Assembly (NCBI GenBank): GCA_947366645.1
Contig: CANBAX010000001.1
Coordinates: 1 to 46,568, forward strand
Reading direction: 5' to 3'
Length of the DNA stretch: 46,568 nt
From: an uncultured Clostridia bacterium
GTDB lineage: Bacteria; Bacillota; Clostridia; Christensenellales; UBA1242
The translations under genes and the position numbers were made by a program. The notes under the pieces are model-generated. The model made no database searches and had not been told where the DNA came from. It worked only from the letters and a program-made list of their open reading frames with translations. Below are positions 1,692-46,568 of this stretch, piece after piece; within the stretch, counting starts at the first letter, position 1, and each line of letters begins with the position of its first letter.

Positions 1692-1907
1692 AGATTTCTC
1701 CGCTCCACTTCGTTTCGGTCGAAATGACAGTGTAGTAAGGACAGGTTTCGGTCGAAATGACAGTAGCTTAGCCGCTTTTTTCGCTACGCTGGATTCTTCG
1801 ACTACGCTTACGCTTCGCTCAGAATGACAAGATGGGCTTTACGCTGTGCTGGATTCTTCACTTTGCTCAGAATGACAAGGGTGGAGTGAGTTTCGGTCGA
1901 AATGAAA
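1692..1907 (+). repeat. mosaic repeat cluster R1, inside the thrS 5' UTR
   Basis: A unit 1692-1729. Short unit GGTCGAAATGACA 1750-1762. Two B/C-type units ending CTCAGAATGACA (1763-1829, 1830-1877). Degenerate short unit 1895-1907. Confidence 0.9.
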
Positions 1908-1916
1908 GTGTAGAAT

Positions 1917-2115
1917 AAAAAAAACGCCCTTAAAAAACTTTAAGGACGATGTGTTAAACCGCGGTTCCACCTTAATTGCAAAATTACTTTTGCCTCTCAA
2001 TTTTTTGCATATCTTCATAAAAGTGGTTTCATTTGATTTTCCGCTTAGGTTTTTCACCAGCCAACCCTTCTCTGTACGCTTCCAATTAAACTACTTGTCT
2101 TTCACTAATGCTTAT
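1917..2115 (-). promoter_or_regulatory. T-box riboswitch leader (Thr-specific candidate) with intrinsic terminator
   Basis: The minus strand reads AAGGTGGAACCGCGG (1959-1971 region), which is the T-box core. A terminator hairpin CGTCCTTAA/TTAAGGGCG plus T-run follows (1917-1949). AGAGA and GGTGAAA stem I motifs are present, as are ACC (Thr) triplets in a GAAACCA context. It sits upstream of thrS. Confidence 0.8.
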
Positions 2116-2121
2116 GCCAGT

Positions 2122-2150
2122 ATATTAGCACTTTGTTTATTTTTTGTCAA
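2122..2150 (-). promoter_or_regulatory. sigma-A-type promoter of the thrS T-box leader
   Basis: Minus strand: TTGACA (2150-2145), 17-nt spacer, TAATAT (2127-2122). Confidence 0.6.
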
Positions 2151-2203
2151 CTGAAATTATTAGGTTTTTTAAATTTATAACCTTTGATAATTTTCACAAA
2201 AAT

Positions 2204-3809: not shown

Positions 3810-3838
3810 AAAATCCATGCTAATACATGGATTTTTTG
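3808..3838 (+). terminator. rho-independent terminator
   Basis: ATCCATG-ctaata-CATGGAT followed by TTTTTT. Confidence 0.8.
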
Positions 3839-4132: not shown

Positions 4133-4229
4133 AGATTTCTCCGCTTCGGGCTATCGCCCTTCGGTCGAAATGACATAATAAAAAAATGGCTTCGGTCGAA
4201 ATGACGAGGTAAGTGAGGTCGAAATGACA
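4133..4229 (+). repeat. mosaic repeat cluster R2
   Basis: A unit 4133-4175 (inner hairpin GGGCTATCGCCC). Short units 4194-4206 (ends ATGACG) and 4217-4229. Confidence 0.9.
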
Positions 4230-5201: not shown

Positions 5202-7727
5202 TTACTTACATTCGTACAAGTTTTTTCCCTTTCCTACCGTTGCAACAAGTGGCACTTTGAGTTTTACTACATTCTCCATTTCACGACGAAGAAGTTTTTC
5301 CACCTCTTCTTCCTCACCTTTATAGGTATCAATAATAAGCTCGTCATGAATCTGTAAAATTAACTGACTTTTTTTGCCTTTTAGTGCCTTCTGCACATTT
5401 ATCATTGCGAGTTTTATTATATCTGAGGCACTTCCCTGCATTGGCATATTCATTGCCACCCTTTGCCCAAAGCTGCGAGTTTGATATTTTGATGAGGAAA
5501 GTTCGGGTATTCTTCTAATTCGACCAAACATGGTTTTTATATAACCTGCTTTTGTCGCTTCCTCAACATTTTTTTCCATAAATTCTTTTACTTTTGGATA
5601 CCGCGAAAAATATGAATCAATATATGATTTTGCTTTTGCCCTTGAACTTTTTATATTTTGACTTAAGCCATAATCGCTTATTCCATATATTATACCAAAA
5701 TTTACCGCCTTCGCTTCCCGTCTTTGGTCGGCTGTTGGCTTACTTACCCCGAAGATTTGGCAAGCCGTCAAAGTGTGAATATCCTCGCCGCGTTTATATG
5801 CCTCGATTAAATGTTCCTCCCCAGACATATCTGCCAAAAGTCTAAGTTCAATTTGGTTATAATCGGCTGAGATTAAACTTCCGCCCTCAAACTTAGATTC
5901 AAAAATTTTGCGTAGCTCCCGCCCCTCTTCGTCACGTGTTGGTATGGTTTGAAGGTTTGGCTCGCTGCTGGAAAGCCTGCCTGTACTTGTTAATGCCTGA
6001 TTAAAGGTGGTGTGGATTATATTCCCGCCTTCCTTACACAATTTTTTATAAACATCTATATATGTGTTTTTGAGTTTTGAAAGTTTACGATGTTTTAGTA
6101 TTAAGTCCACTATTGGTATATATCTTACTTCTTCAAGCACTCCCACCGCGGTGGACTGCTTTTTATTATTCCATGTTTCTATTTTAAGTTTATCAAATAG
6201 TACACTTGCGACCTGTTTTGGCGAATTGATATTAAATTCTTCTCCAGCTATCTCATAAATTTCTTTAGAAAGTTTTTCAAGACGTATTGTATAATCACTA
6301 TCTAGGTCATCAAGTTTCCTTTCATTGATTTGAAAGCCACTTTCTTCCATTTCTACTAAGATTTCAACAAGCGGAAGTTCTATTTCCTCGTATACCTTAT
6401 TTAGCCCTTCCTCTTTAAGCGTTTCCATGTAGTTATTGTACAAATCATAATAACCTGAGGTTTCCGAAGTTATCTCCCCATTTTTTAAACCTGCACTTAT
6501 TAAATAATGCGCAAGTGATAAATCAAAATAATTTACAAATTTAATTCCAAGTTTCTTTAAATAATGCAAGTCACTCTTTGCATCAATAGTTAATTTCACT
6601 ACATTTTTATCTTCAAATATTGGTTTTAATATTTGGCAGGCCTGTTCGAGTGAAAGTTCACTACCGAACATTGTGTAATTATCATTTAGATAGTATTCTT
6701 TATCTTTATTAAAAGCAAAGGTCATCTTTTTTAAGTTATATGCAAAAGATTTCTCCGCTACGGTCGAAATGACAGATGAAGAGGTGGTCGAAATGACAAA
6801 GGAAGAAACAAGATTTTGCAAAGTCTCATGAGAAAGTTCCTCACGTTCTGCTTTTTTTATTGGCGAGATGGTTTTACCAAACAGGCTATTATTTTTTACA
6901 AGGGAGGAAAAATCCCATTTTACAAAAAATTCATGCACTCTTTCATTAAATGGAAATTTAAGTTTACACTCTTCAATATTGAAAGGAAAATCGCAGTCTG
7001 TTTTAATTGTCGCAAGTGTTTTGGAAATATCGGCGTCTTCTTTACCGTCAATTAATTTTTCTTTGAGTTTTCCATTTATTTTATCAATATTTTCATATAT
7101 TCCATTGATATCGCCATACTCTTCAAGAAGTGAATACGCCGTCTTTTCCCCTATACCTTTTACTCCTTTTATATTATCGCTTGTATCCCCCATTAGGCCT
7201 TTTAGTTCAATTACCTGACTTGGAGATAGGTTGTACTCCTCTTGTAAGACCTTTAAGTCCACCTTCTTAACCTCAGTAACACCCTTCTTTGTAAGCCAAA
7301 CAAAGGTGTTTTCATTGATAAGTTGTAGTAAATCCCTATCCCCTGAAAGAAGTATTTTTTCACAGTCACAGTTTTTGGTAAGCGTACCTATGATATCATC
7401 GGCCTCTATATTTTCATACTCGAAGGTCTTGATGTCCATAGTTTGCAACATCTCTTTTATTACCGGAAATTGAGTTATAAGTTCTGGCGGAGTAGGCTTT
7501 CTTTGACCTTTATAATCCGCATAAATCTCATTTCGAAAGGTTTTTCTTGCATGGTCAAATGCTACCGCGATATGTGTGGGTTTTTGTTCCGTTATCAGTT
7601 TTATTAATATATTTGCAAAACCAAAAACAGCACCCGATGCCTTCCCCTCATGATTTGAGAGAAATGGGAGGGCATAGAATGCTCTGTTTGCTATACTATT
7701 TCCGTCTACTATTAGAAATTTATCCAT
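5202..7727 (-). CDS. polA: DNA polymerase I
   Basis: 841 aa. 5'-3' exonuclease N-terminus (DGNSIANRAFYA, GDRDLLQL) and family A polymerase motifs (DYNQIELRLLA, RREAKAVNFGIIYG, QIHDELI). It carries an in-frame repeat copy at 6747-6798. Confidence 0.95.
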   Translation of the reverse strand: MDKFLIVDGNSIANRAFYALPFLSNHEGKASGAVFGFANILIKLITEQKPTHIAVAFDHARKTFRNEIYADYKGQRKPTPPELITQFPVIKEMLQTMDIKTFEYENIEADDIIGTLTKNCDCEKILLSGDRDLLQLINENTFVWLTKKGVTEVKKVDLKVLQEEYNLSPSQVIELKGLMGDTSDNIKGVKGIGEKTAYSLLEEYGDINGIYENIDKINGKLKEKLIDGKEDADISKTLATIKTDCDFPFNIEECKLKFPFNERVHEFFVKWDFSSLVKNNSLFGKTISPIKKAEREELSHETLQNLVSSFVISTTSSSVISTVAEKSFAYNLKKMTFAFNKDKEYYLNDNYTMFGSELSLEQACQILKPIFEDKNVVKLTIDAKSDLHYLKKLGIKFVNYFDLSLAHYLISAGLKNGEITSETSGYYDLYNNYMETLKEEGLNKVYEEIELPLVEILVEMEESGFQINERKLDDLDSDYTIRLEKLSKEIYEIAGEEFNINSPKQVASVLFDKLKIETWNNKKQSTAVGVLEEVRYIPIVDLILKHRKLSKLKNTYIDVYKKLCKEGGNIIHTTFNQALTSTGRLSSSEPNLQTIPTRDEEGRELRKIFESKFEGGSLISADYNQIELRLLADMSGEEHLIEAYKRGEDIHTLTACQIFGVSKPTADQRREAKAVNFGIIYGISDYGLSQNIKSSRAKAKSYIDSYFSRYPKVKEFMEKNVEEATKAGYIKTMFGRIRRIPELSSSKYQTRSFGQRVAMNMPMQGSASDIIKLAMINVQKALKGKKSQLILQIHDELIIDTYKGEEEEVEKLLRREMENVVKLKVPLVATVGKGKNLYECK
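6747..6798 (+). repeat. mosaic repeat R3 inside the polA coding sequence
   Basis: Minimal A unit AGATTTCTCCGCTACGGTCGAAATGACA 6747-6774 plus short unit GGTCGAAATGACA 6786-6798. It is read through as ...FVISTTSSSVISTVAEKS... in PolA. Confidence 0.9.
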
Positions 7728-11692: not shown

Positions 11693-11974
11693 AGATTTCT
11701 CCGCTCCACTGCGTTACGGTCGAAATGACATGGTAGTAAAAACGGGCGTTAGGCGAAATGACAATTCCTTAGGCACCTTTTAACGCTACGCTGGATTCTT
11801 CACTTTGTTCAGAATGACATAAATGGGGAAATAGATTTCTCCGCTCCGCCCTATCGGGCTACGGTCGAAATGACAAGGTGGGGGCGAAAGGACAGAGGAG
11901 GGAGATAGATTTCTCCGCTCTGCGACCAAAGGTCGCGCCGGTCGAAATGACAAATAAAAATAGTTGAAATGACA
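11693..11974 (+). repeat. mosaic repeat cluster R4
   Basis: A units 11693-11730, 11833-11875 and 11907-11952. B/C unit 11764-11819. Degenerate short units 11751-11763, 11883-11894 and 11962-11974. Confidence 0.9.
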
Positions 11975-12019: not shown

Positions 12020-12027
12020 CTTGATAT

Positions 12028-12356
12028 CAGTTATGCAGACAGTCGCATCGCAAGATGAGGAAAGTCCGAGCTTCAAGAGAACTGGGTGCTGGTTAACGGC
12101 CAGTGAAGGCGACTTCAAGGATAGTGCAACAGAAATAAACCGCCCGCGTTTTGCGCGAGCAAGGATGGAAAGGCAGTGTAAGAGACTACCGCTTGGTTGG
12201 TGACAACTGAGGCTCTGTAAACCCCACCTGAAGCAAGGTCAAAAAGGCATTAGGGCTTGTTCTCTCCCGCCTTTTAACGCACCGCTTGATTTAATTGGCA
12301 ACAATTAAACTAGATAGATGACTGTTTAATACAGAACTCGGCTTATAACATAACTG
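12028..12356 (+). ncRNA. rnpB: RNase P RNA (bacterial type A-like)
   Basis: GAGGAAAGTCCGAGC (12057-) and ACAGAACTCGGCTTA (12331-12345) form the conserved P4 halves, with a covarying GAG/CTC. P1 pairs CAGTTATG (12028-12035) with CATAACTG (12349-12356). A promoter lies upstream and a terminator downstream. Confidence 0.85.
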
Positions 12357-12379
12357 AAGGGCATTATGCCCTTTTTTTA
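12357..12379 (+). terminator. rho-independent terminator of rnpB
   Basis: AAGGGCA-tta-TGCCCTT followed by a T-run. Confidence 0.8.
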
Positions 12380-12386: not shown

Positions 12387-12465
12387 AGATTTCTCCGCTC
12401 CGCCCTATCGGGCTACGGTCGAAATGACATGGTTCGGTTGGTCGAAAGGACACCGCCTTAGGCGG
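12387..12465 (+). repeat. mosaic repeat cluster R5
   Basis: TAGGACAG (12381-12388) abuts A unit 12387-12429. Degenerate short unit 12440-12452. Hairpin CCGCCTTAGGCGG 12453-12465. Confidence 0.9.
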
Positions 12466-15068: not shown

Positions 15069-15137
15069 AGATTTCTCCGCTTTTCACCCCTAAAATGCCA
15101 AAGCATTTTTGGGGAACCCCGAACGGTCGAAATGACA
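15069..15137 (+). repeat. mosaic repeat R6: long-loop A unit
   Basis: AGATTTCTCCGC...CCCCTAAAATGC-caaa-GCATTTTTGGGG...GGTCGAAATGACA. A near-identical copy lies at 31849-31918. Confidence 0.9.
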
Positions 15138-21484: not shown

Positions 21485-21776
21485 AAAATTATTTATAGAT
21501 TTCTCCGCTTTGCGACCATAGGTCGCAGCGGTCGAAATGACAGTGCCTTAAGCGCCTAAACCCTTCGACTACGCTTCCCTCCGCTCATGATAACAAAGAT
21601 GACAATGATTATAAAAAAGATTTCTCCGCTGCGGGCTGTCGCCCTTCGGTCGAAATGACAAGTTGAAAATTTGGCTTCGGTCGAAATGACAGTTGTAGGT
21701 GAAGTCCGAAATGGCAGTGCCTTAGGCACCTTTTAACGCTACGCTGGATTCTTCACTACGTTCAGAATGACAATAT

Positions 21777-21803
21777 AAAAAAAAGTGGCTGAGCCACTTT
21801 TTT
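21777..21803. terminator. bidirectional terminator-like hairpin inside R7
   Basis: AAAAGTGGC-tga-GCCACTTTT. The arms are identical to those of the hairpin at 22020-22046. Confidence 0.6.
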
Positions 21804-22019
21804 GCTTCTTAGACGCTTTTTTTAGATTTCTCCGCTACGTCGTCACAACACAAGCTGAAACTCACATTGCAAAAGCAATGCTCGCCTGACGCATGGTTGC
21901 TCCTCTTCCCACAAATGCTGTCGCATTTGCGGGATCCCTAAACTTCGGTCGAAATGACAAGAGGAAGAAGTCGGTCGAAATGACAAAGTTATGGGCGGTC
22001 GAAATGACAATATTGGAAT

Positions 22020-22046
22020 AAAAAAAGTGGCTTTGCCACTTTTTTA
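22020..22046 (-). terminator. rho-independent terminator downstream of rpmF
   Basis: AAAAAAGTGGC-ttt-GCCACTTTTTT. Confidence 0.7.
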
Positions 22047-22087
22047 TTTTAGATTTCTCCACGTTGGTCGAAATGACATTGATATGT

Positions 22088-27035: not shown

Positions 27036-27326
27036 GTTAGGACAGACACCACTCGTCGGTCGCTCACAAATCAAAGATTTGATTCGCTGCCTCGCGGTTT
27101 CTCCACCTCCCACGGGTCCCCGAAAAACTTTTGAGTTTTTTGGGAATGGGAGTTTTCTTCCCTAAGGGGTCCTTCTGGATTTCAAGAGCGGACATAGTCC
27201 TTTTACTTTGAAATCCGCCAGTCCGCTAACGAGGCAATTCACAAGTGGAAAACAAGCGCACCTACAATTTATGAGAGTATTTATGAAAAGTTGATTAATA
27301 TAGATTAAGTTAGGACAAGCACCATT
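26952..27326 (+). repeat. tandem duplication, period 273 nt, about 1.4 copies
   Basis: 26952-27053 (gene 3' end plus TTAGGACAGACACCACT) recurs at 27225-27326 with about 6 mismatches. The first copy continues as the full E element. Confidence 0.85.
27037..27224 (+). repeat. E element copy 2 (about 188 nt)
   Basis: It starts 2 nt after the stop codon. It has the conserved 5' end, centre (27087-27108) and 3' end of copy 1, with different internal hairpins (CTCCCA...TGGGAG, GGATTTCAAAG...TTTGAAATCC). Confidence 0.8.
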
Positions 27327-27355
27327 ATCTATAGTTTATATTCTACTTAACGACT

Positions 27356-27383
27356 AAAAAACACACCAAGTGGTGTGCTTTTT
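27356..27383 (+). terminator. rho-independent terminator
   Basis: CACACC-aagt-GGTGTG followed by CTTTTTATTTT. Confidence 0.75.
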
Positions 27384-27388
27384 ATTTT

Positions 27389-27600
27389 AGATTTCTCCGC
27401 GTCGCCCTTCGGGCTATGGTCGAAATGACAAAGGTGAGAAAAACAGATTTCTCCGCTTTGCGACCAAAGGTCGCGCCGGTCGAAATGACAAAAGTGGAGC
27501 AAAGATTTCTCCGCTACGGGCTAAGCCCTTCGGTCGAAATGACAGTGCCTTAGGCACTTTTTTACGCTTCGCTAGATTATTCACTTTGTTCAGAATGACA
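27389..27600 (+). repeat. mosaic repeat cluster R8
   Basis: A units 27389-27430, 27445-27490 and 27503-27544. B/C unit 27545-27600. Confidence 0.9.
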
Positions 27601-27631
27601 AAGGGGTGCCTTAGGTGGGCTTTGTGGTAAT

Positions 27632-27716
27632 TAATGCAATTTTCCTTTGGTCGCAAGAGGCAAACCAAGCGGTAAGGTTGGAAAAATTTGTGCTAGTAAA
27701 TTTTGAGACCAATTAG
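27632..27716 (+). repeat. D module copy 1 (about 85 nt), overlapping the stop codon of the HIT-RNase H gene
   Basis: TAATGC..TTTGGTCGCAA..AAAAATTTGTGCTAGTAAATTTTGAGACCAATTAG aligns with 42143-42226. Confidence 0.75.
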
Positions 27717-28594
27717 CTTGTGTGCAACCTCAGTTTTTCTATCTCGGCACGCGCAAGTGCGTCACAGCGATTATTAAGTGCGTTATCGGCGTGTCCCTTC
27801 ACCTTATGCCACGAAACGCTATGTCTTGCGGTCTGCACTAAAAGGCGTTTCCAAAGGTCAATATTTTGCACCTCTTTTTTCCCACTTGTGTGCCAGTTAT
27901 TCTTTTGCCATGAGCCTACCCAGTCTTCAACAAACGCATTTACAACATAGGCTGAGTCGCTGTATACATCTACCTCACAAGGCTCTTTTATCTTTTCTAG
28001 CCCCATGATTACTGCCATAAGTTCCATACGATTATTTGTAGTTTCTCTTTCCCCGCCTTTCACCTCTTTTTCTTGACTTCCATATTGTAATATACCCGCC
28101 CAGCCACCAAGCCCTGGGTTGCCTGAGCAGGCACCATCTGTATACAATACTATTTTTTTCGCTTCGCCTAGGTCTTGGGATACGCTTACGCTACGATTTG
28201 GTTGAGCAGCATTAAGGCTTAATTTTTCCGCTAGTAGTTTTAAGTCATTACCTATTTTTGGATAGGTTTTATATATATCTTTTCCATCGTCTTTACGGCG
28301 TGGAAATACGTGCATATGAAAATGTGGCACCATTTCATTTACATTCATAAGATTAACGCTATCATAGCCACATTTCTCAGTAAAATGTTTAGACACGAGT
28401 TGCACGGTATTCATTACATGGGCAAGGTCAGCCTTTGGGCAGTCAATTACATTATGGCAATGTTTTTTGGGAATAACAAGAGTATGCCCCTCAATATCAT
28501 CTGCGATATCTAAAAAAGCAAGTGTGTACTCATCTTCATAGATTTTATAACTTGGAATTTCACCTTTTACGATTTTACAAAATACGCAGTCCAT
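27713..28594 (-). CDS. HIT-family hydrolase fused to ribonuclease HI
   Basis: The N-terminal half has CKIVKGEIPSYKIYEDEY...HFHMHVFPR (histidine triad). The C-terminal half has LYTDGACSGNPG...NNRMEL...YSDS...KVKGHADN..NNRCDALA (RNase HI DEDD). GAGGTG RBS before ATG 28594; the ORF track starts at 28606. Confidence 0.85.
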   Translation of the reverse strand: MDCVFCKIVKGEIPSYKIYEDEYTLAFLDIADDIEGHTLVIPKKHCHNVIDCPKADLAHVMNTVQLVSKHFTEKCGYDSVNLMNVNEMVPHFHMHVFPRRKDDGKDIYKTYPKIGNDLKLLAEKLSLNAAQPNRSVSVSQDLGEAKKIVLYTDGACSGNPGLGGWAGILQYGSQEKEVKGGERETTNNRMELMAVIMGLEKIKEPCEVDVYSDSAYVVNAFVEDWVGSWQKNNWHTSGKKEVQNIDLWKRLLVQTARHSVSWHKVKGHADNALNNRCDALARAEIEKLRLHTS

Positions 28595-28641
28595 ATTACA
28601 CCTCATAATTTTTGGAAGCCACCACCTTACAAAGTTGTTTT

Positions 28642-28875
28642 AGATTTCTCCACGACGCCTTCGGCTCTGGTCGAAATGACATCTCCTTAGGCGGTTTATT
28701 GTTGAAATAGATTTCTCCGCTACGGGCTACGCCCTTCGGTCGAAATGACAAAGTAAGAGAGTTTCGGTCGAAATGACAGAAGATAGGTCGGTCGAAATGA
28801 CAAAGTAAGAGAGTTTCGGTCGAAATGACAGAAGACGGGTCGGTCGAAGTTAACTAAGTGTCAGTCGAAATGACA
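28642..28875 (+). repeat. mosaic repeat cluster R9
   Basis: A units 28642-28681 (CCA/TGG variant) and 28709-28750. Short units 28766-28778, 28790-28802, 28818-28830 and 28863-28875. 52-nt tandem duplication at 28751-28802 / 28803-28854. Confidence 0.9.
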
Positions 28876-28973
28876 AACAAGTGTGGCTCACTCTTTATTG
28901 ATTATACCAAAGTTTTTTATTTTCTCAAACACATTTAAGGCTATTAACGAATAAAGAATATTGAGGTGATATT

Positions 28974-30908: not shown

Positions 30909-30973
30909 TTTTCTTTTTATTTTATTTGATATTTTCTCTTTTTTATAGTATTCTTTTTTTAGGAGGATTTAAA

Positions 30974-31204
30974 ATGGCAAAGAGAAAATCAAGTAAAGAT
31001 TATTTCGGTCTTGGAAGAGTTGTAAGTATCATTCTTGCAATATTCCCATTTACTGCATGGCTTCTTGGCGCTTTTACTAGATTTAGTGAAGGCAAGTTTG
31101 TTGCAGGTCTTATACGCTTAATTTTCGGTTTTAACATTGTTTGGATTGTAGACTTAATCCTTATGATAGTTAAAGGCAGAATTTGGCGTTTACTTAACTG
31201 CTAA
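30974..31204 (+). CDS. small membrane protein, 76 aa (hypothetical)
   Basis: AGGAGG RBS 7 nt before ATG 30974. Two hydrophobic helices. A terminator follows. Confidence 0.6.
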   Translation: MAKRKSSKDYFGLGRVVSIILAIFPFTAWLLGAFTRFSEGKFVAGLIRLIFGFNIVWIVDLILMIVKGRIWRLLNC

Positions 31205-31211
31205 GACTCTT

Positions 31212-31239
31212 AAAAAAACCGACATATGCCGGTTTTTTT
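31212..31239 (+). terminator. rho-independent terminator
   Basis: AACCGACAT/ATGCCGGTT imperfect stem followed by TTTTTTT. Confidence 0.7.
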
Positions 31240-31258
31240 ATTGCTATAGATTTATGGA

Positions 31259-31305
31259 AGATTTCTATGCTTTGCGACCATAGGTCGCATCAGTCAAGAT
31301 GACCA
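31259..31305 (+). repeat. degenerate A unit R10
   Basis: AGATTTCTATGCTTTGCGACCATAGGTCGCATCAGTCAAGATGACCA. Both conserved flanks are eroded but the inner GCGACC/GGTCGC hairpin is intact. Confidence 0.7.
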
Positions 31306-31324
31306 GCGAAAATTTACGATAACA

Positions 31325-31801
31325 CTATTCTATTATGCCCTTGATGTGAATACCCAAAAGTTCGAGATAATAGTATTCGTCTAAAGGTTTATTAAGTGCG
31401 TCATTTGAGTGAGCAGAAACATAAATTCTATTACTTTCTTTTTTTGTGATTATCACGGTATGATTAAAATGTGTAGGATTTTGCCTAAGCTGGATAATAT
31501 CTCCTATCTCAAGACTTTCTATAGGAGCAATTTCGCCGATTACTCCTATTCCGCTCTGCCGTAATAAAAACCTATTGAGATATTGTACACTCGTCCAGCT
31601 GGGCGAACGATTAAAGGAGTTTATATAAAACCAACCATAATATTTATTATAATTCATTACACCACCGCCGGCATACAAGCACTGGGAAATAAAATTTGTA
31701 CAATCACCACCTATTCCCGCAAAATGATAATATCTTGGGTTGGCACCAAGAGCCCATCGCTTAGCATATGCCACAGCGTCTTCTCGATTATATTGTTTCA
31801 T
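31325..31801 (-). CDS. putative amidase-domain protein
   Basis: 158 aa. AVAYAKRWA...GGDCTNFISQCLYAGG...SW..V matches my memory of the putative amidase domain family. Confidence 0.6.
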   Translation of the reverse strand: MKQYNREDAVAYAKRWALGANPRYYHFAGIGGDCTNFISQCLYAGGGVMNYNKYYGWFYINSFNRSPSWTSVQYLNRFLLRQSGIGVIGEIAPIESLEIGDIIQLRQNPTHFNHTVIITKKESNRIYVSAHSNDALNKPLDEYYYLELLGIHIKGIIE

Positions 31802-31848
31802 ACAATGTATTTATTCTAATAAAAAAATTTGGGTGCGGAATAGAAGAG

Positions 31849-32239
31849 AGATTTCTCCGCTTGTTCACCCCTAAAATGCTAAAGCATTTTTGGGGAGCCC
31901 CGAATGGTCGAAATGACAGTGGTTTAGGCGGGTTTTAACAATATATGTAAAAAAGATTTCTCCGCTGCGGGCTACGCCCTTCGGTCGAAATGACATAGGT
32001 AGGGAAAAACGCCCTTCGGTCGAAATGACAAGATGGAAAAACAGAGTTCGGTCGAAATGACATAGGTGAGAGTAAGACTGCGTATGGTGGTCGAAATGAC
32101 AATAAGATAGATTTCTCCGCTACGCTATTGCTCCGGTCGAAATGACATAGGTAGGGAAAAACGCCCTTCGGTCGAAATGACAAAGGTAGGGAAAATGGAC
32201 TGCGGTTGAAATGACAAGGAAGGGCTGGTCAAAATGAAA
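31849..32239 (+). repeat. mosaic repeat cluster R11
   Basis: Long-loop A unit 31849-31918. A units 31954-31995 and 32109-32147. Short units 32018-32030, 32050-32062, 32089-32101 and 32170-32182. Degenerate units 32204-32216 and 32227-32239. A 35-nt block at 31996-32030 is repeated at 32148-32182. Confidence 0.9.
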
Positions 32240-32247
32240 AAAAGCGG

Positions 32248-32889
32248 TTATTCCGCTTCGTCTTCTTGATTTGCAAGTTCTATCGCATCATTTTTAACAT
32301 ATATACCTTCTATCTTTGTATATGGCAGGTTTTCTTGTTTCTTTACTGATTTTATCACTATTTGCTTAGATTCTCCGCTTCCATACAAAATAAAATCGTC
32401 ATCATAGTTATAGTCTGGATAGTTTTCCTTATTATTTTTATATTCTTCTACATTTAAAATTTCAAAGCCAGCATTTTTATAAAATTTTCTTGCACGTTTT
32501 TCAAGTTCTTCCAGTGGCACCTCCCGCTTATAATCACGGTCAGTGGAAAGTTGCTGAGGCGCATACTCTCCGCGAATTACATAACCCTCATAATCATTTA
32601 GGGCAAAGGACAATATATCATTGAGTGCGGAGGCAACTCCTTTACCTCGATATTGTTGATAGGCGTAAACCTCACTTAAAAATAGTCTTTTATTTGGTTG
32701 AACTTGGACAAAAATATATCCAGTTGAATGCCCCTCTAAATTAAATGAATGAATATATATCTTCGTTCTGGCATTCCTTAAATATGCAATGTTTAAATTT
32801 TTATCTTTGTCGGCAAATACAAAGATATCTTCTATAAAGTTATCTTTTTGTCTGAAATTTCTTGCTAGTGAAAGTAATTTCTTTTTCAT
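32248..32889 (-). CDS. GNAT-family N-acetyltransferase (putative)
   Basis: 213 aa. YQQYRGKGVASAL (acetyl-CoA motif A-like) and FYKNAGFE. The start lies 20 nt from the tRNA-Ser 3' end. Confidence 0.6.
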   Translation of the reverse strand: MKKKLLSLARNFRQKDNFIEDIFVFADKDKNLNIAYLRNARTKIYIHSFNLEGHSTGYIFVQVQPNKRLFLSEVYAYQQYRGKGVASALNDILSFALNDYEGYVIRGEYAPQQLSTDRDYKREVPLEELEKRARKFYKNAGFEILNVEEYKNNKENYPDYNYDDDFILYGSGESKQIVIKSVKKQENLPYTKIEGIYVKNDAIELANQEDEAE

Positions 32890-32909
32890 TCCATACCCTT
32901 TGTTTTTTT

Positions 32910-32998
32910 TGGCGCAGAGAACAGGATTCGAACCTGCGGAGGCTTATCACCTCACACGCTTTCCAAGCGTGCGCCTTAAACCGCTCGGCCATCTCTGC
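32910..32998 (-). tRNA. tRNA-Ser (anticodon GGA), CCA encoded
   Basis: Minus strand: GCAGAGATGGCCGAGCGG...CACGC-TTGGAAA-GCGTG...long variable arm...GGTTCGAATCC...TCTCTGCGCCA. It has a 7-bp acceptor stem and a class II variable arm. Confidence 0.9.
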
Positions 32999-33118
32999 AT
33001 GAGCCTTTATTAGAATATCATATATTATTTTTAATTGCAACAAAATATTTATACTTTTTACTAAGCACCATGGTGCTTAGTATATGTTTTTTTAGCGTAA
33101 AAGTGCTTTAATATTATC

Positions 33119-33376
33119 ATGGATAAGAAACACGGAATTATGAACGCAATATCAAATAAATTAGGAAGATTAATGAGCAAAAGAGGCTGGAGCGTGTATA
33201 AGCTTTCCCGAGTTTCTGGTATTACTCCAAATGGAATAGAAGTCATATTACAAAAAAAATATAAAGATATTAAACTTTCAACTATAATTATCCTAGCAAA
33301 TTGTTTTAATATGACAGCATCAGAATTTTTATGTGACGATGATTTTCTTTTTAATAATTTAGATTTATATAAATAA
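33119..33376 (+). CDS. XRE-family helix-turn-helix protein
   Basis: 85 aa. LMSKRGWSVYKLSRVSGITPNGIEVIL...STIIILANCFNMTASEF is a typical HTH_3 pattern. Confidence 0.7.
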   Translation: MDKKHGIMNAISNKLGRLMSKRGWSVYKLSRVSGITPNGIEVILQKKYKDIKLSTIIILANCFNMTASEFLCDDDFLFNNLDLYK

Positions 33377-33387
33377 AAATTATTAGT

Positions 33388-33647
33388 AGATTTCTCCGCT
33401 GCGGGCTACGCCCTTCGGTCGAAATGACAAAATGAGAGAAAACAGGCTGCGGTCGAAATGACAGTGCCTTAGGCACGGTTGGAAAGAAATAGATTTCTCT
33501 ACGACGCCTTCGGCTCTGGTCCAAATGACAAAAGATGTGTTTTAGATTTCTCCGCTTTGCGACTATAGGTCGCGTCGGTCGAAATGACAGAGGCAGGGTT
33601 GGTCGAAATGACAAGGTGGGAAAAAATGGGCTGCGGTCGAAATGACA
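33388..33647 (+). repeat. mosaic repeat cluster R12
   Basis: A units 33388-33429, 33491-33530 (degenerate flanks) and 33544-33589. Short units 33451-33463, 33601-33613 and 33635-33647. Hairpin GTGCCTTAGGCAC 33464-33476. Confidence 0.9.
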
Positions 33648-33670
33648 AAAGGAGTGCTTGCTAAAATTAT

Positions 33671-33699
33671 AAAAAATACGCTAAATCTTAGCGTATTTT
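33671..33699 (-). terminator. rho-independent terminator overlapping the stop codon of 33698..34213
   Basis: AATACGCTAA-atc-TTAGCGTATT with a T-run on the minus strand. Confidence 0.7.
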
Positions 33700-34213
33700 A
33701 TTTTATCAATTTTAAATCCTTTATATTTACTGAAACACAATCTCCATCATAAAATTTCCCATTTTCATTAAAGCCAGAAAAGTCGACAAGAACCGTATTC
33801 TTTATAGAATAATTTATGCACACAACTCCCCTTTCTCCTTTATGTAATCCATATTTTGTATACTTCTCATCTTCAATAATAAGTTCAACCAAATCATTTT
33901 CTTTGAAAATTGACTTTTCAAAGTTCTCTTTTTTTGAAATATTTTCTTCACTTATCTTATTACTAGTTTTAAGTTCTTTTACAAAATTTATAGGTAAAAC
34001 CAAATCTTCTTTTTTTAAGTCAGTTTCTTCCACTTCTAACACTGCATAGTCACCAACTATTTTATCATTTAAAAATAGCACTCTCGCTTTCCCTTTTGGT
34101 AATATTTTTAATACTACTCCGTTTGTGTGCAAATATAGATACTTATTTTCATATTCTTTTTTTAAATTTATTAAAGTTACAATATCATTTTCTTTCATTG
34201 ATTTGTCCTCCAA
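33698..34213 (-). CDS. tandem DUF4926-like protein (candidate immunity/antitoxin)
   Basis: 171 aa with two internal repeats (NDIVTLINLKKEY...GVVLKILPKGKARVLF and NDLVELIIEDEKY...GERGVVCINYS...VLVDF) resembling the small DUF4926 fold. It overlaps the upstream gene by 29 nt. Confidence 0.45.
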   Translation of the reverse strand: MEDKSMKENDIVTLINLKKEYENKYLYLHTNGVVLKILPKGKARVLFLNDKIVGDYAVLEVEETDLKKEDLVLPINFVKELKTSNKISEENISKKENFEKSIFKENDLVELIIEDEKYTKYGLHKGERGVVCINYSIKNTVLVDFSGFNENGKFYDGDCVSVNIKDLKLIK

Positions 34214-38426: not shown

Positions 38427-38492
38427 AGATTTCTCCGCTGCGGGCTAGTGCCCTTCGGTCGAAATGACAGTGTAAATGTAGTCGAAATAACA
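38427..38492 (+). repeat. mosaic repeat cluster R13
   Basis: A unit 38427-38469. Degenerate short unit AGTCGAAATAACA 38480-38492. Confidence 0.9.
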
Positions 38493-39921: not shown

Positions 39922-40262
39922 AGATTTCTCCACTTTGCGACCATAGGTCGCGTCGGTCGAAATGACAGTGCTTTAAGCGGTTATTGTCAATTTTTTAAAA
40001 GATTTCTCTGCCCCACTATGTTCAGGTCGAAATGACAGTGGCGTGAACCACTTTTTTACGCTGACACTAGATTCTTCGACTACGCTCAGAATGACGGGAG
40101 GCGAATAGATTTCTCCGCTCCGCTATCGCTACGGTCGAAATGACAGAAAAGGGATTTGTCGAAATGACAGAAGGCGGGGTTTTGACATTTTATTAAAAAA
40201 GATTTGTCGAAATGACATAAAGTGGAAGGTCGAAATGACAAAATGGGTTGGTCGGTATGACA
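39922..40262 (+). repeat. mosaic repeat cluster R14
   Basis: A units 39922-39967, 40000-40037 and 40107-40145. B/C unit 40038-40096. Collapsed units AGATTTGTCGAAATGACA at 40152-40169 and 40200-40217. Short unit 40228-40240. Degenerate unit 40250-40262. Confidence 0.9.
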
Positions 40263-41704: not shown

Positions 41705-41776
41705 TTTTTCTCCATTTGTTACAATATTATTTTAACAAATTATATATATAAAAAGCAAGCGAAATTGTGAAAAAAT

Positions 41777-41801
41777 AAAAAACCGCTGAATGCGGTTTTT
41801 T
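41777..41801 (-). terminator. rho-independent terminator (bidirectional shape), distal to the dacB 3' repeat cluster
   Basis: AAAAAACCGC-tgaat-GCGGTTTTTT. Confidence 0.75.
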
Positions 41802-41823
41802 ATATTGAAATTTACAGATACTT

Positions 41824-42093
41824 AGATTTCTCCGCGACGCCTTCGGCTCTGGTCGAAATGACAGTGTGAGTGAATAGATTTCTCCGCTACGGGCTATTGC
41901 CCTTCGGTCGAAATGACATAGGTTAGAAAGTATGTTCGGTCGAAATGACAAAAGGTAAGAATATAGTTTTAGTAGAAATGACATAATCCGATTTAATAGA
42001 TTTCTCCGCTCTGCGACCAAAGGTCGCGTCGGTCTAAATGACAATATAACTTTGTAAGTAAGGTTAAAATGACAGTGCTTTAGGCGGTTTTTT
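41824..42093 (+). repeat. mosaic repeat cluster R15
   Basis: A units 41824-41863, 41876-41918 and 41998-42043. Short unit 41938-41950. Degenerate units 41981-41993 and 42062-42074. Hairpin GTGCTTTAGGCGG plus T-run 42075-42093. Confidence 0.9.
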
Positions 42094-42142
42094 ATTATCT
42101 TCCTCTCGAAAAGTTGCGACAAATCGCCAATGTAGCAAAGCC

Positions 42143-42226
42143 TAATGCGATTTCGTTTGGTCGCAAAAGACGAGCGGGACGGCAAGGTCGTAAAAATTTA
42201 TGTATGTAAATTTTGAGACCGATTAG
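42143..42226 (+). repeat. D module copy 2 (about 85 nt), 15 nt downstream of the dacB-like stop
   Basis: TAATGC..TTTGGTCGCAAAAG..AAAAATTTATGTATGTAAATTTTGAGACCGATTAG aligns with 27632-27716. Confidence 0.75.
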
Positions 42227-43474: not shown

Positions 43475-44089
43475 TTATATCACTATTATTACATTTGCAT
43501 TGAATATAAGAAGAAGTATGGTTTCAATAAGGCAAACTATTGCAAGGATAAGGGCAAAACAAAGAATTGTTTTCATTTTGCCACCCTTTCCACCATAACA
43601 TCTATTGTCGCAGTTATTCTTATTTAACATAAAGAAATAAAGGGTTAAAAGCAAGATTAAAAATACTTGGCAAGGCAGAATAACGAAAATAGAGATAATG
43701 ATACCTGACACGCCATAAGTAAGAAGCATTAGGCAAAAATTAAAACCTAATAAATAGGAGCGAAAGGCAAGCAATATAATTGCAAGTGGAGTGAGAAAAG
43801 GTGTAAAACTACAGCCAAACAGTAGTAGCATTACAAGGATACAGGAAAGAAGTCTTGAAAAAAATGTGGTGGTCACTCCACTACCCACAAACTTTACAAT
43901 ACCATAATCCTTTAACACATTTAAAGAGGCATCTGAGTTGTATTGTACCGCGAGTATTATACCTAATACCAAACTTACAAACAGTATGAATGAGGTAATT
44001 ATAATTTTGGTTTTAGATGCACTTAGGCAGTCTAGCACATAATATTTTAGCTCTGCGAAAAAGGTCTGTTTTTTGTAAGATTTTGACAT
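43475..44089 (-). CDS. polytopic membrane protein, possibly SpoIIM-like
   Basis: 204 aa with about 5 TM helices. Size and topology resemble stage II sporulation protein M. The assignment is weak. Confidence 0.4.
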   Translation of the reverse strand: MSKSYKKQTFFAELKYYVLDCLSASKTKIIITSFILFVSLVLGIILAVQYNSDASLNVLKDYGIVKFVGSGVTTTFFSRLLSCILVMLLLFGCSFTPFLTPLAIILLAFRSYLLGFNFCLMLLTYGVSGIIISIFVILPCQVFLILLLTLYFFMLNKNNCDNRCYGGKGGKMKTILCFALILAIVCLIETILLLIFNANVIIVI

Positions 44090-44170
44090 ATTTTAAAATA
44101 TGCGTAAGTCCCATTAGTTATGATAGGAAAATAATGGGTTATATAAAAAGAAAAAAGAGGACTTGACCTC

Positions 44171-45382
44171 TTAATATAATTCTTCTAGTTTGTGGGCAAG
44201 AATTTTGACATGCTCATAGGTTAACCCGCCTTGAAAATAAGCAATATAAGGTTTTTTGATAGGGCTGTCACAACTAAGTTCTATACTTGCACCCCCTACA
44301 AAGGTGCCAGCTGCCATAATAACCTTATCTTCATATCCTGGCATTGCCCATGGCATAGGTAGTGCAAAACTATCTACTGGCGAAATGGTCTGCACGGTTT
44401 GAACAAATTTGACAAGTTCCTCTTCGCTATTAAACACCACTGATTTTATGATATCATAGGCGTTTTCTTTTGATGCGGGTATAACTTTATAGCCTTTTTC
44501 TTCCATAACTTTACCGACAAGGTAACTTCCCTTAATTGCTTGTGCCACCGTATGAGGTGCAACAAATAGGCCTTGATAGAAAAGCCTATATCCGCCTTCG
44601 TAGGAGCCTACCTCAAGTAGCAGTGAGGGAGAGGTGAAACGAGTAGCAATTCTGTTTATTGCCTGTGTTGTTCCTACAATATATCCACCGGTGGGAGCAA
44701 GTCCACCACCCGTGTTTTTTATTAATGACCCGACAGCAACATCTGCACCAACTTCGGTTGGCTCTTTCATTTCAACAAATTCTCCATAACAGTTGTCGAC
44801 AACTATATAACTTCCCTTTGGCATGACCGCTCGCACCCTACTAAAAGCATTTTCTAGTGTTTCTATAGATAAGGCATTACGACTTGAATATCCACGCGAA
44901 CGTTGGAAAAAAATTACCTTTGGTTTTTTAGATTTTACACGTTTTACAAGAGTGTCAATATCTATTTCACCATTTTTAAGGTCTACTTGCTGGTAAGAGA
45001 TATTAAAATCTTGAAGCGAGCCATTTTCTTTACCAAATATAGTATCATGGAGAGTATCATATAACTCACCTGTAGCGGAAAGCAAAAGGTCGTTTGGGCG
45101 TAAAAGCCCGAAAAGCACTATTGAAATAGCATGAGAGCCACAGGTTATTAATGGCGAAACAATTCCGCTTTCGGTGCCAAAAACTTCGGCATAGACTTTT
45201 GACAGTTTATCTCTGCCCATATCATCATATCCATAACCGGTGCTTCCAGCAAAGCACTGAGAGGTTATCTTATTATTTATAAAGGCATTTAAAACCTTAT
45301 TTTGATTAAATAGTGCTATTTTGTCCACCCTATCAAATTGACTTTGCAAGGCTTTTTCTAATTTTTCTAATTTCATAGCCAC
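44171..45382 (-). CDS. PLP-dependent methionine gamma-lyase-family protein (YnbB / aluminium-resistance family)
   Basis: 403 aa. FAGSTGYGYDDMGRDKL..VYAEVFG.E...V.P...SG.HAI is the typical N-terminus of this family. It lies downstream of miaA, as in many Firmicutes. Confidence 0.75.
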   Translation of the reverse strand: MAMKLEKLEKALQSQFDRVDKIALFNQNKVLNAFINNKITSQCFAGSTGYGYDDMGRDKLSKVYAEVFGTESGIVSPLITCGSHAISIVLFGLLRPNDLLLSATGELYDTLHDTIFGKENGSLQDFNISYQQVDLKNGEIDIDTLVKRVKSKKPKVIFFQRSRGYSSRNALSIETLENAFSRVRAVMPKGSYIVVDNCYGEFVEMKEPTEVGADVAVGSLIKNTGGGLAPTGGYIVGTTQAINRIATRFTSPSLLLEVGSYEGGYRLFYQGLFVAPHTVAQAIKGSYLVGKVMEEKGYKVIPASKENAYDIIKSVVFNSEEELVKFVQTVQTISPVDSFALPMPWAMPGYEDKVIMAAGTFVGGASIELSCDSPIKKPYIAYFQGGLTYEHVKILAHKLEELY

Positions 45383-46281
45383 TCCTTTATCTCTTTTTCA
45401 ATACTCTTTTGCGCAAGAACAAAGTCTTCCACATTTATTTCGCTTACATTATAAGTTTTTGCAAGCCCACGAAGATATGTGAGCTGTCTTTTTGCATAGT
45501 GACGAGTATTCTTTTTTATTTCGTCAACTAATTCAGATAATGTTATTTCTCCCTCTATATATTTCACTGTTTCTTTATATCCTATGGCAGTCATGGGTTG
45601 GCAGGACTTTTTAACGCCCTTTGCAAGCAGTGTTTCCACCTCTTTAACAAGCCCTTGTTGAAGCATAATGTCAACTCGGGCTTCTACTTTTTCATATAAC
45701 TGTTCTCTTGGAAGCGTTAAAGCAAAAATTTTAAAGTCATATGGGGGTGAACTTTTTGTCTGTTCTTTACCAAACTTTGCTATCTCTAACGCACGAATAA
45801 CCCTAACCTTATTATTTTTATCAATTTTTTTAGCTAGGTTTGCATCAAGATTCTCTAACTTTTTATAAACATAATATAGTCCATAATTTTCTATTTCTTT
45901 TTCAAGTCCTTTGCGATAGTCTTCATTTCTATTAGTACCACCAAAATTATAGCCACCAAGTAGTGCTGAAACATACAGACCTGTGCCACCGACAACTATT
46001 GGAATTTTGCCATGTTTAAAAATTTCTTCTATCTCTTTACGCGTGATATCTACAAAATCACTTACACTAAAATAATCGGCGGAGTTACAAATATCAATAT
46101 TATAATGTTTTACCCCCTCCATTTCTTTTGTTGTGATTTTGGCTGAGCCTATATCGAAGCCTCTATAAATTTGCACTGAATCCGAAGAAATAATCTCGCC
46201 ATTATATTTTTGAGCGAGTTTTATTGCCATTTTGCTTTTGCCAACGCCTGTTGAGCCAAATATGAATATTACTTTTTCCAT
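45373..46281 (-). CDS. miaA: tRNA dimethylallyltransferase
   Basis: The ORF track extends to 46422 through repeat units. The true start is most likely ATG 46281 (MEKVIFIFGSTGVGKSKMAIKLA, P-loop). Confidence 0.9.
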   Translation of the reverse strand: MEKVIFIFGSTGVGKSKMAIKLAQKYNGEIISSDSVQIYRGFDIGSAKITTKEMEGVKHYNIDICNSADYFSVSDFVDITRKEIEEIFKHGKIPIVVGGTGLYVSALLGGYNFGGTNRNEDYRKGLEKEIENYGLYYVYKKLENLDANLAKKIDKNNKVRVIRALEIAKFGKEQTKSSPPYDFKIFALTLPREQLYEKVEARVDIMLQQGLVKEVETLLAKGVKKSCQPMTAIGYKETVKYIEGEITLSELVDEIKKNTRHYAKRQLTYLRGLAKTYNVSEINVEDFVLAQKSIEKEIKEWL

Positions 46282-46291
46282 AGTTTTTTTT

Positions 46292-46568
46292 AAATTTCTC
46301 CACTGCGGTCGAAATGACAAGGTTAGGGAATAGATTTCTCCGCTTCGGGCTATCGCCCTTCGGTCGAAATGACAAAAAGGGTGCTTATCGAAATGACAGT
46401 GTAAGGGCGGTTGATATGACACCGCCTTAGGCGGTTTTTGACAATTTTTTAAAAGATTTCTCCGCGACGCCTACGGCTCTGGTCGAAATGACAAAGTGGG
46501 AAAAACGAGCTCTGGTCGAAATGACAAGGTTAGGGAATAGATTTCTCCGCTTCGGGCTATCGCCCTTC
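46292..46568 (+). repeat. mosaic repeat cluster R16, continuing past the window end
   Basis: A units 46292-46319 (minimal), 46332-46374, 46454-46493 and 46539-46568 (cut by the window edge). Short unit 46514-46526. Degenerate units 46386-46398 and 46409-46421. Hairpin CCGCCTTAGGCGG 46422-46434. A 43-nt block at 46319-46361 is repeated at 46526-46568. Confidence 0.9.

Follow-up and report, generated by a model that had tools for sequence, protein, structure and literature searches.

A TGTC-tagged palindromic repeat family of uniform polarity in a Clostridia contig: a probable branch of the CGTC/TGTC-tagged REP superfamily

The window analysed here, a stretch of 46,568 nucleotides (nt) from an uncultured Clostridia bacterium (contig CANBAX010000001.1), is a complete 46.6-kb contig of a metagenome-assembled genome (MAG) with housekeeping genes mainly on the minus strand. 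Between these genes lie arrays of a short hairpin-forming repeat that always points the same way, and the locus raises the question of what kind of element this repeat is, how it spreads and what fixed its orientation. The repeats are very probably a Clostridial branch of the CGTC/TGTC-tagged superfamily of repetitive extragenic palindromic sequences (REPs), which are small non-autonomous palindromic repeats. The best explanation overall, given a probability of roughly 0.5, is that this branch has been recently active and was seeded by a trans-acting enzyme working on single-stranded DNA.

Repeat unit and copy number

Array units are written here as AGAT..ATGACA on the plus strand, and the TGTC-tagged strand is the minus strand. 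The sequence GTCGAAATGACA is present in 53 exact copies in the window, all on the plus strand and none on the minus strand (chance expectation 0.01), and AGATTTCTCCGC is found 32 times at up to one mismatch, again on the plus strand only (expectation 0.29). The reverse-strand form TGTCATTTCGAC and other such forms have no copies in the window. A covariance model built from 42 minimal units of cross-phylum origin identified 36 full units in the window at E<0.01, every one on the plus strand, among which are two further subfamilies with the stem triplets TCT/AGA. The units fall into 15 clusters that together occupy 3,025 nt, or 6.5% of the window. These counts bear out a first-pass annotation of the sequence, in which about 50 exact copies of GTCGAAATGACA, about 35 units and no copy in reverse orientation had been recorded. 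Its 16 clusters of about 3.4 kb (about 7%) were of the same scale as the present figures but somewhat too high, and its description of the clusters as intergenic is correct for most of them but not for the cluster at 6747-6798, which lies in frame inside polA.

A full unit is composed of AGATTTCTCCGC, a loop, and GGTCGAAATGACA. The loop is either 3 nt in length (TAC, TTC, TGC or GTT) or a G+C-rich nested hairpin of 13-112 nt. The full unit is usually followed by one to five half units, each of which is the 3' arm alone behind a purine-rich leader of 10-22 nt that is often the 3' half of the inner hairpin. An extra module, GYGCCTTAGGCRC with a T run, often comes next and leads into a second subfamily, GGATTCTTCACTACGTTCAGAATGACA. 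This hairpin and T run directly follow many ATGACA ends in constant orientation (for example 1763-1783, 21700-21722, 27545-27563, 40038-40058 and 46403-46421) and read as an intrinsic terminator on the plus strand alone, antisense to most genes. An origin of the half-unit leaders as arm remnants of an inverted partner was rejected, as their match to GGAGAAAT (4.67) was that of shuffled sequences (4.58 and 4.65). The nine bases that follow ATGACA are C-poor (9-17%) and mildly purine-rich in approximately 230 units across phyla, and in the window lineage they fit RGGTRRGRRAAA, being either part of the element or a target preference.

Structure of the tagged strand

On the minus strand the unit takes the form 5'-TGTC, A-T-Y-Y-Y, G·A A·G, N-C, triloop or nested hairpin, G-(bulged Y)-N', R-R-R-A-T, CT-3'. 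The unit of the window reads TGTC-AT-TTC-GA-CCG...CGG-A-GAA-AT-CT on this strand, and the general plus-strand form across phyla is (R)AGAT-NNN-TC-[N R C ... G N']-TC-N'N'N'-ATGACA. All 53 arms of the window carry TGTCAT on the minus strand; across phyla GTCAT is preceded by T in at least 90% of units and by C in some, where the opposite strand reads ATGACG. The start of the stem, A:U then U:A, is invariant in the 42 aligned units and in all window units. At the untagged end there is a conserved CT followed mostly by C, which corresponds to a G before AGAT on the plus strand in 50% of units.

The pairing of the stem is retained while its sequence varies. The triplets observed are TTC/GAA, TCC/GGA, CTC/GAG, CCC/GGG, CCT/AGG, TCT/AGA, GTC/GAC, CTT/AAG, GCC/GGC and TGC/GCA, and the triplet pairs fully in 316 of 352 units that were chosen without regard to it. 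When the seeded TTC/GAA type is left out, full pairing is seen in 79 of 115 units, compared to 25.6 (maximum 38) with shuffled partners. The inner pair covaries as well (G:C 22, C:G 17, A:U 1), and many sister units within the cross-phylum loci differ from each other by compensatory changes alone. The repeat is real and structured, as had been proposed, and the pairings ATTTC/GAAAT and CCG/CGG given in the first-pass annotation are the same as those predicted by ViennaRNA.

The stem is interrupted by a 2x2 internal loop, TC/TC on the plus strand and 5'-GA-3' on each arm of the tagged strand, and 77 of the 135 units outside the seeding by the search pattern retain it. The presence of GA on both arms indicates a tandem sheared G·A arrangement, which is generally stable. 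In 26 of 30 window units the fold of the tagged strand is the more stable of the two strands with DNA parameters (p=9e-5), and in 20 of 30 with RNA parameters; the units compared are related copies, so that these p-values overstate independence. The minimal units are weak hairpins (-4 to -5 kcal/mol, z about -0.6), and their conservation therefore points to recognition by a partner and not to stability.

Assignment to the CGTC/TGTC-tagged superfamily

Prokaryotic REPs have been described as two superfamilies, GTAG-tagged and CGTC-tagged, the second of which contains the families CGTC-1 to CGTC-4 (Di Nocera, De Gregorio and Rocco 2013, BMC Genomics 14:522; PMC3733652). The CGTC tag reads TGTC in many of these repeats, and their stems almost always start with complementary A·T residues (PMC3733652). 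Both features are found in the window unit, so the earlier statement that it resembles neither REP/BIME nor any class that can be named does not hold. Canonical CGTC-1 units, GTCATTCCCGCGAAAGCGGGAATC, were identified in L029, L048, L049, L050 and L057, loci that had been retrieved through exact window-type units, and the two kinds of unit standing side by side in the same loci directly link the window unit to the CGTC class. The canonical 8-bp CGTC-1 stems were seen in these related loci and not in the window. The GTCATTCCCGCGAAAGCGGGAATC unit encodes the peptide VIPAKAGI, which is the peptide given for CGTC-1 of R. conorii (PMC3733652). The window-type stem has nine positions, of which positions 6-7 are the conserved tandem G·A/A·G, and a bulge on one strand; with the two G·A positions counted, its span may be reconciled with the 8-9-bp stems of the described families. 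The striking repeat landscape of the window does not represent a new class; it adds a new variant to the CGTC/TGTC-tagged REP superfamily and widens the range of hosts known for it.

Occurrence across phyla

One genome per species was scanned for the exact arms at a spacing of 2-32 nt, and at least 118 stretches from more than 10 phyla were returned, a result that does not agree with the species-specific family implied by the first-pass annotation. Among the matches listed are Clostridia, Planctomycetota, Patescibacteria, Chloroflexota, Bacteroidota, Cloacimonadota, Armatimonadota, Acidobacteriota, Verrucomicrobiota, Gammaproteobacteria and Actinomycetota, the last including the isolate Bifidobacterium panos DSM 109963. 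The covariance model identified 171 units on both strands of 60 other loci. Conservation across these more than 10 phyla extends to the tag, the A·T/T·A at the start of the stem, the tandem G·A loop and the covarying stem pairs. Gaps that hold units are convergent, tandem and divergent in 17, 50 and 6 cases respectively, against a background of 44, 180 and 49.

One-armed tandem half units were also found in Bacteroidales, an Acidobacteriota-like MAG, Pseudomonadales and other Clostridia, and this occurrence outside the window lineage makes them look like a by-product of the process that handles these repeats. In a Patescibacteria MAG (L043, 2049-2153 and 739-845), minimal full units follow each other head to tail with a period of 35-36 nt, on both strands; direct arrays therefore exist, rarely, beyond the window lineage. 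Carriage by phages or plasmids was rejected, with three matches among 2.9 million viral contigs and no match in the plasmid collection. When metagenome contigs were scanned with a lineage-specific pattern, so as to sample the other replichore, there was one match, and a spurious open reading frame (ORF) from an array, used as a protein query, yielded no candidates for further arrays.

Turnover among related loci

The units of the window lineage have in all likelihood been mobile or expanding recently. Array 3 adds 18 residues, FVISTTSSSVISTVAEKS, to the polA product (amino acids 310-327) in the linker that joins the 5'-3' and 3'-5' exonuclease domains, and this insertion is missing from all seven aligned PolA relatives. 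Loci of 22 kb around polA were taken from relatives for a comparison of synteny. Many clusters are present in this region in the window, two in L120 (86% PolA identity) and several in L121 and L122 (two strains, 83% PolA identity), which differ between the strains, whereas L123 and L124 (70% PolA identity) have no copies across the 22 kb. The gap of array 2 is empty in L120 and L123 and holds another array in L121 and L122, and in the gap of array 6 the relatives have other arrays or none.

The two strains L121 and L122, which are 98.8-99.2% identical, are one 29-nt half unit apart in one array and one 23-nt half unit apart in another. In their ftsY/sigma-factor gap (about 2410-2440 in L122) an inner segment of 13-15 nt is replaced between identical flanks, with tccactgcgtttc in one strain and gacgcctacggcttt in the other. 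To judge from the sequences, this swap looks like gene conversion or a cassette-like exchange between units.

The sites of the arrays differ as well. In the thrS region the array of the window is downstream of the T-box terminator, and that of L120 and L122 is upstream of the T-box promoter, with only about 15-30 nt from the terminator to the thrS ribosome-binding site. Between mutL and miaA, L132 and L133 have an empty spacer of 21 nt; the spacer contains one unit in L130 and L131, and in the window it is filled by an array of at least 280 nt that runs up to the contig end. Identical copy number and positions in closely related genomes had been named as weakening the idea of a mobile element; the relatives differ in both. 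The folded-strand anatomy is conserved, units have been gained and lost recently at new sites, and copy number changes by exact tandem duplication.

Polarity and mechanism of spread

The GC skew is negative across the whole window, which makes the plus strand the C-rich, lagging-type strand. All units in the window and in L010, L120-L122 and L130-L133 are on the C-rich strand, opposite most genes. Adjacent unit pairs of the window lineage are direct in 25 cases and inverted in none, compared to 52 inverted and 3 direct in other phyla. In tandem-gene contexts of the window lineage the TGTC strand is the gene strand for 29 of 29 units, while other lineages show 29 against 37 with respect to genes and 52 against 53 with respect to GC skew (24 against 20 for singletons). 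Strict polarity is specific to the window lineage, and the earlier view of it as a property of the family fails on the inverted dimers found mostly elsewhere, which have neither gene-strand nor GC-skew bias. Array 1 is certainly, and array 15 probably, part of a minus-strand transcript: the position of the thrS T-box leader places array 1 within an obligatory minus-strand transcript, read in the TGTC sense, and the mutL-miaA spacer of array 15 is likely intra-operonic since it measures only 21-64 nt in relatives.

For IS200/IS605 elements, both insertion and excision take place on the template of the lagging strand, and HUH Y1 transposases read subterminal hairpins together with a guide tetranucleotide, the related RAYT enzymes cleaving and rejoining REPs (PMC6006769). 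In the lineage of the window, a trans-acting enzyme may recognise the folded TGTC strand as single-stranded DNA and seed new sites, working as HUH Y1 enzymes do on REP and IS200/IS605 ends. As the tagged strand carries leading-strand sequence, it would be the template for lagging-strand synthesis and transiently single-stranded; its exposure at the fork would be the source of the strict polarity. A trans-acting HUH-like enzyme would account for the tag, the fold requirement, the missing target duplications and the polarity. Arrays would then expand and contract as the 13-nt direct arms slip or exchange unequally, and would be homogenised through gene conversion. The inserted units would be co-transcribed with leading-strand genes as RNA hairpins and would probably be like other REPs (3'-end or processing barriers) or near neutral. 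That a replication-coupled single-strand DNA mechanism is behind both the spread and the polarity is a tentative proposal. Single-strand hairpin mobilisation of the REP/RAYT or IS200/IS605 kind had been suggested from the sequence beforehand; it is still the best lead.

Several observations weigh against this proposal. Neither the window nor approximately 1 Mb of related loci yielded an HUH or other transposase, and no dedicated transposase is known for CGTC REPs. A clean junction between filled and empty sites with a target signature was not recovered, and the flanks are only weakly biased in composition. Other lineages ignore GC skew, and a lagging-strand bias is therefore not general to the family. 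In the window the directions of replication and of the genes coincide, so that polarity is explained equally by transcription, and the window alone cannot separate the two, as the first-pass annotation had recognised. Wobble asymmetry was considered as a discriminator between RNA and DNA or between the strands, and it is of no help in choosing, the stem variants being purely Watson-Crick without wobble-pair excess on either strand (T:G 13, C:A 12).

The search for a mobility enzyme extended further. None of the 40 window ORFs matched a transposase, integrase or reverse transcriptase in NCBIfam or Pfam, as had been noted from their translations. All-against-all clustering of 4,704 ORFs from 118 loci identified no recurrent neighbour protein family, and a tblastn search of the approximately 1 Mb with an IS200 TnpA query gave only a spurious match inside an ABC ATPase. 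It is conceivable, but rather unlikely, that CGTC/TGTC REPs are propagated by a conserved activity of the host's replication or repair, which would work on the TGTC strand, folded with its tandem G·A hairpin, while this is exposed as lagging-strand template. The half units would then mark the point of cleavage or strand transfer, and the window lineage would display a polar and currently active form of the process. If this were so, the lineage would be the first handle on the movement of a repeat class that spans more than 10 phyla.

Polarity could also have been set at the level of the transcript, an explanation that is possible though doubtful, in which units insert either way and, in this gene-dense Firmicute with its strong gene-strand bias, only copies with TGTC in the mRNA sense survive. 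The TGTC-sense hairpin, whose tandem G·A is stable, may serve the mRNA as a barrier at its 3' end or in processing, like the REPs of E. coli; alternatively, the opposite sense may be harmful through AGAT-sense hairpin and T-run modules that would terminate gene-sense transcription. Many REPs have been argued to act as RNA (PMC3733652), and the TGTC-sense transcription of array 1, the likely intra-operonic site of array 15, the 29 of 29 tandem-context units with the TGTC strand as gene strand, the GYGCCTTAGGCRC terminator on the plus strand only and the preference for convergent and tandem over divergent gaps (17/50/6 versus 44/180/49) are all consistent with it. However, the orientation is the same in convergent gaps, beyond terminators and inside polA, where no transcript constraint is evident, it is random with respect to genes in other phyla (29 versus 37), and the minimal hairpins are weak. 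An RNA could instead be the intermediate of spread, with AGAT-sense transcripts ending in ...AUGACA being reverse-transcribed from the 3' end and half units being 5'-truncated copies, as in non-long-terminal-repeat retroelements. Half units in several phyla do keep the 3' arm and a variable stretch of the 3' half of the inner hairpin behind an unrelated purine-rich leader. Yet their number changes by exact tandem duplication, which slippage explains, the window and the related loci hold no reverse transcriptase, and most genes, hence most transcription, are on the opposite strand; this route is very unlikely.

It is also improbable that no transposition took place and that ancient copies only underwent local tandem duplication, slippage and homologous or gene-conversion exchange, the relatives differing by loss. 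The exact differences of plus or minus one half unit between near-identical strains, the loop swap with identical flanks, which resembles gene conversion, and the lack of a mobility enzyme in the window and related loci would fit such a history. It does not readily accommodate the in-frame polA insertion missing from seven of seven aligned relatives, the lineage-dependent position of arrays within one intergenic region (at thrS, the window versus L120 and L122), the relatives at 70% PolA identity without copies over 22 kb of synteny, or the exact arms in more than 10 phyla. A chromosome-architecture signal that is read on double-stranded DNA, like KOPS, Chi or the landing pad of a protein, and takes its polarity from replication would match the strict co-orientation with GC skew over 46 kb and in syntenic relatives, but it is the least credible of the readings considered. 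The compensatory stem changes and the conserved mismatch loop indicate a folded single strand and not a duplex site, copy number and position vary between near-identical strains, and polarity is absent in other phyla. The CGTC/TGTC REP branch with recent activity, seeded through single-stranded DNA, is preferred to these alternatives.

Arrays and neighbouring genes

The genes of the window include thrS, ytxC, ruvX, polA, rarA, rnpB, a sigma factor gene, ftsY, smc, rnc, plsX, ackA, pta, glmM, mnmA, scpAB, dacA and miaA. The arrays and the features that accompany them are listed in Table 1.

Table 1. Repeat arrays of the window and associated features, with coordinates in the window.
Feature	Coordinates	Strand	Composition and context
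Array 1	1692..1908	+	full unit, half unit, hairpin and T run, two TCT/AGA-type units, degenerate half unit; ~215 nt between the T-box terminator and the thrS ribosome-binding site, within the thrS 5' leader
thrS T-box leader	1939..2110	-	78.2 bits, E=4e-17, full model length; Rfam gathering score of 93 not reached
Array 2	4133..4229	+	full unit and two half units; convergent gene gap
polA	5202..7727	-	contains array 3
Array 3	6747..6798	+	minimal unit (loop TAC) and half unit; in frame in the polA linker
Array 4	11693..11974	+	three full TTC-type units, one TCT-type unit, half units; upstream of the RNase P RNA gene
RNase P RNA gene (rnpB)	12027..12361	+	between arrays 4 and 5
Array 5	12387..12452	+	directly 3' of the rnpB terminator; full unit identical to 11833-11875
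Array 6	15069..15137	+	single unit with 44-nt nested hairpin; ftsY/sigma-factor gap
Array 7	21497..22078	+	largest array; at least five full units, half units, two interleaved bidirectional terminators; plsX-ackA gap
Array 8	27389..27604	+	three full units, hairpin and T run, TCT-type unit; convergent genes
Spurious array ORF	27414..27668	-	
HIT/RNase H ORF	27713..28606	-	HIT domain N-terminal, RNase H domain C-terminal
Array 9	28642..28875	+	two full and four or five half units; divergent genes
Promoter-like site	28928..28901	-	strong, predicted; would make array 9 a 5' leader
Array 10	31849..32216	+	three full and at least six half units
Spurious array ORF	31935..32183	-	
Spurious array ORF	33351..33614	-	
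Array 11	33388..33647	+	three full and four half units; near tRNA-Ser
Array 12	38427..38490	+	full unit and degenerate half unit; 104-nt convergent gap
Array 13	39922..40240	+	four full units (one TCT type) and half units; behind a bidirectional terminator
Spurious array ORF	41727..42185	-	
Array 14	41824..42046	+	three full and two half units; scpA-dacA gap
Longest miaA ORF	45373..46422		extends ~45 codons upstream into array 15; true start near 46290
Array 15	46289..46568	+	upstream of miaA; contig terminates within the array

The identical 43-nt full units of arrays 4 and 5 (11833-11875 and 12387-12429, inner sequence tccgccctatcgggctac) are direct repeats approximately 550 nt apart that bracket the RNase P RNA gene. 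In array 7, the loop of the full unit at 21824-21959 holds an unrelated insert of 112 nt, which resembles a nested insertion. The arrays are open in one minus-strand frame and give rise to the spurious ORFs in Table 1, which are 82-152 amino acids in length and carry motifs such as SFRP, CHFDR and VISTE. The contig end (46539-46568) falls within a unit, and the final 90 nt duplicate 46320-46360; the arrays probably break the assembly of this contig. In practical terms, such arrays break assemblies, yield spurious ORFs and N-terminal extensions, and put peptides into real proteins.

Comparison with known systems

Several classes of repeat and RNA were rejected. Integron attC sites and CALIN arrays have R''/R' boxes (RYYYAAC ... 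GTTRRRY) and not AGAT.../...ATGACA arms, and promoterless cassette ORFs lie between their sites, while the intervening genes here are housekeeping genes. A CRISPR array would have repeats of constant length, unique spacers of about 30 nt, a single locus and cas genes; the spacers of the window are 10-45 nt and interrelated, the loci are 15 in number and dispersed, and no cas genes are present. The defining features of type III antitoxin arrays and TIGR arrays are absent, as are the cores of hammerhead, twister, pistol and hairpin ribozymes and of the k-turn, judged by comparing the sequence with the consensus cores. A covariance model and an Rfam search had been proposed as a check in the first-pass annotation; the model has been built as described above, and Rfam 15 at the gathering threshold returned RNase P and tRNA only and no repeat family, with no credible match over 27300-33800 at E up to 10. 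Full-text literature contained only chance primer matches to the literal repeat sequences and related strings. On 50 kb of S. meliloti pSymB, taken as a control for classical CGTC REPs, the covariance model identified no units, and this stretch is uninformative.

IS200/IS605 elements and their non-autonomous derivatives share with the window units the subterminal hairpins read as single-stranded DNA, the lack of target duplication and the lagging-strand-template orientation (PMC6006769). They differ in that their left and right ends are not alike and that they insert 3' of a conserved 4-5-nt target, which lies by the left end, whereas the window has a single palindromic unit and no conserved flanking target, its 20-24-nt flanks showing a weak composition bias. 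The GTAG-tagged REP/BIME and REPIN-RAYT systems, in which GTAG stands at the 5' foot of the hairpin and the repeats flank a cognate RAYT gene, are alike in their imperfect small palindrome, 5' guide-like tetranucleotide, clusters, proposed single-strand DNA mobilisation in trans and RNA 3' barriers. The tag here is TGTC, however, REPINs are inverted doublets while the window units are all direct, and no RAYT or Y1 transposase was found in the sequence examined (the window and approximately 1 Mb of related loci).

Neisseria dRS3 and the NIME arrays resemble the window arrays in their short tagged palindrome, ATTCCC/GGGAAT-type stem, large intergenic mosaic clusters and strain-variable content. 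The dRS3 repeat differs by a perfect 8-bp stem with a 4-nt loop, and NIMEs interleave longer RS blocks. A filamentous prophage integrates at dRS3 by means of an IS110-type enzyme; no element of this kind was seen in the window. The Rickettsia repeats RPE-4 and RPE-6 are likewise inserted in frame in housekeeping genes, where tag and stem encode V-I-P/S-type peptides (VIPAKAGI there, VISTT and VISTV here), but they are mostly intragenic singletons or inverted dimers, compared to one intragenic cluster among 15 in the window. The dRS3 (CGTC-1), RPE-4 (CGTC-4) and RPE-6 (CGTC-1) repeats all belong to the CGTC class (PMC3733652).

CGTC REPs as described have a stem of 8-9 bp, a loop of 4-5 nt and short unpaired tails with the consensus CCA, and were reported from five phyla, without Firmicutes (PMC3733652). 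They are mostly intergenic with a preference for tandem and convergent gaps, have in-frame copies within genes for replication and repair, DNA polymerase I among them, and had no associated transposase in the 2013 survey; inverted dimers predominate, head-to-tail dimers are negligible and clusters are rare (PMC3733652). The window family is alike in its unpaired 4-nt tag, A·T/T·A stem start and short unpaired tail at the other end, in its multi-phylum and mainly intergenic distribution in tandem and convergent gaps with no associated transposase, and in the in-frame copy in the linker of DNA polymerase I (amino acids 310-327 here, amino acids 338-367 of R. palustris RPE_4821 for a CGTC-3 dimer). 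It differs in its stem, which is five Watson-Crick pairs, a conserved tandem G·A and two pairs with a bulged pyrimidine and not a continuous 8-9 bp, in its loops of 3 nt or nested 13-112 nt, in its CT(N) tail, in its one-armed tandem half units, in the strictly head-to-tail order and dense clusters of the window lineage, and in its host, which here belongs to Clostridia.

Since their description, CGTC/TGTC REPs have had no known dedicated transposase to explain their spread. The class now reaches well beyond the five phyla of 2013, its hosts including Clostridia, Patescibacteria, Chloroflexota, Actinomycetota and others, and one of its variants has a tandem G·A loop that is conserved to the nucleotide. 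The window lineage also offers a case of ongoing turnover, with strains of approximately 99% identity one unit apart and new sites in polA, the T-box leader and an operon spacer. The absolute polarity, which is not available in lineages of inverted dimers, could serve to tell a replication-coupled single-strand mechanism apart from selection that acts on RNA. The lineage is set apart from the described families by its tandem G·A internal loop, the nested hairpins in the loop, the tandem 3'-arm half units and strict polarity, and its interest rests on that polarity, the half units, the nested hairpins and current activity.

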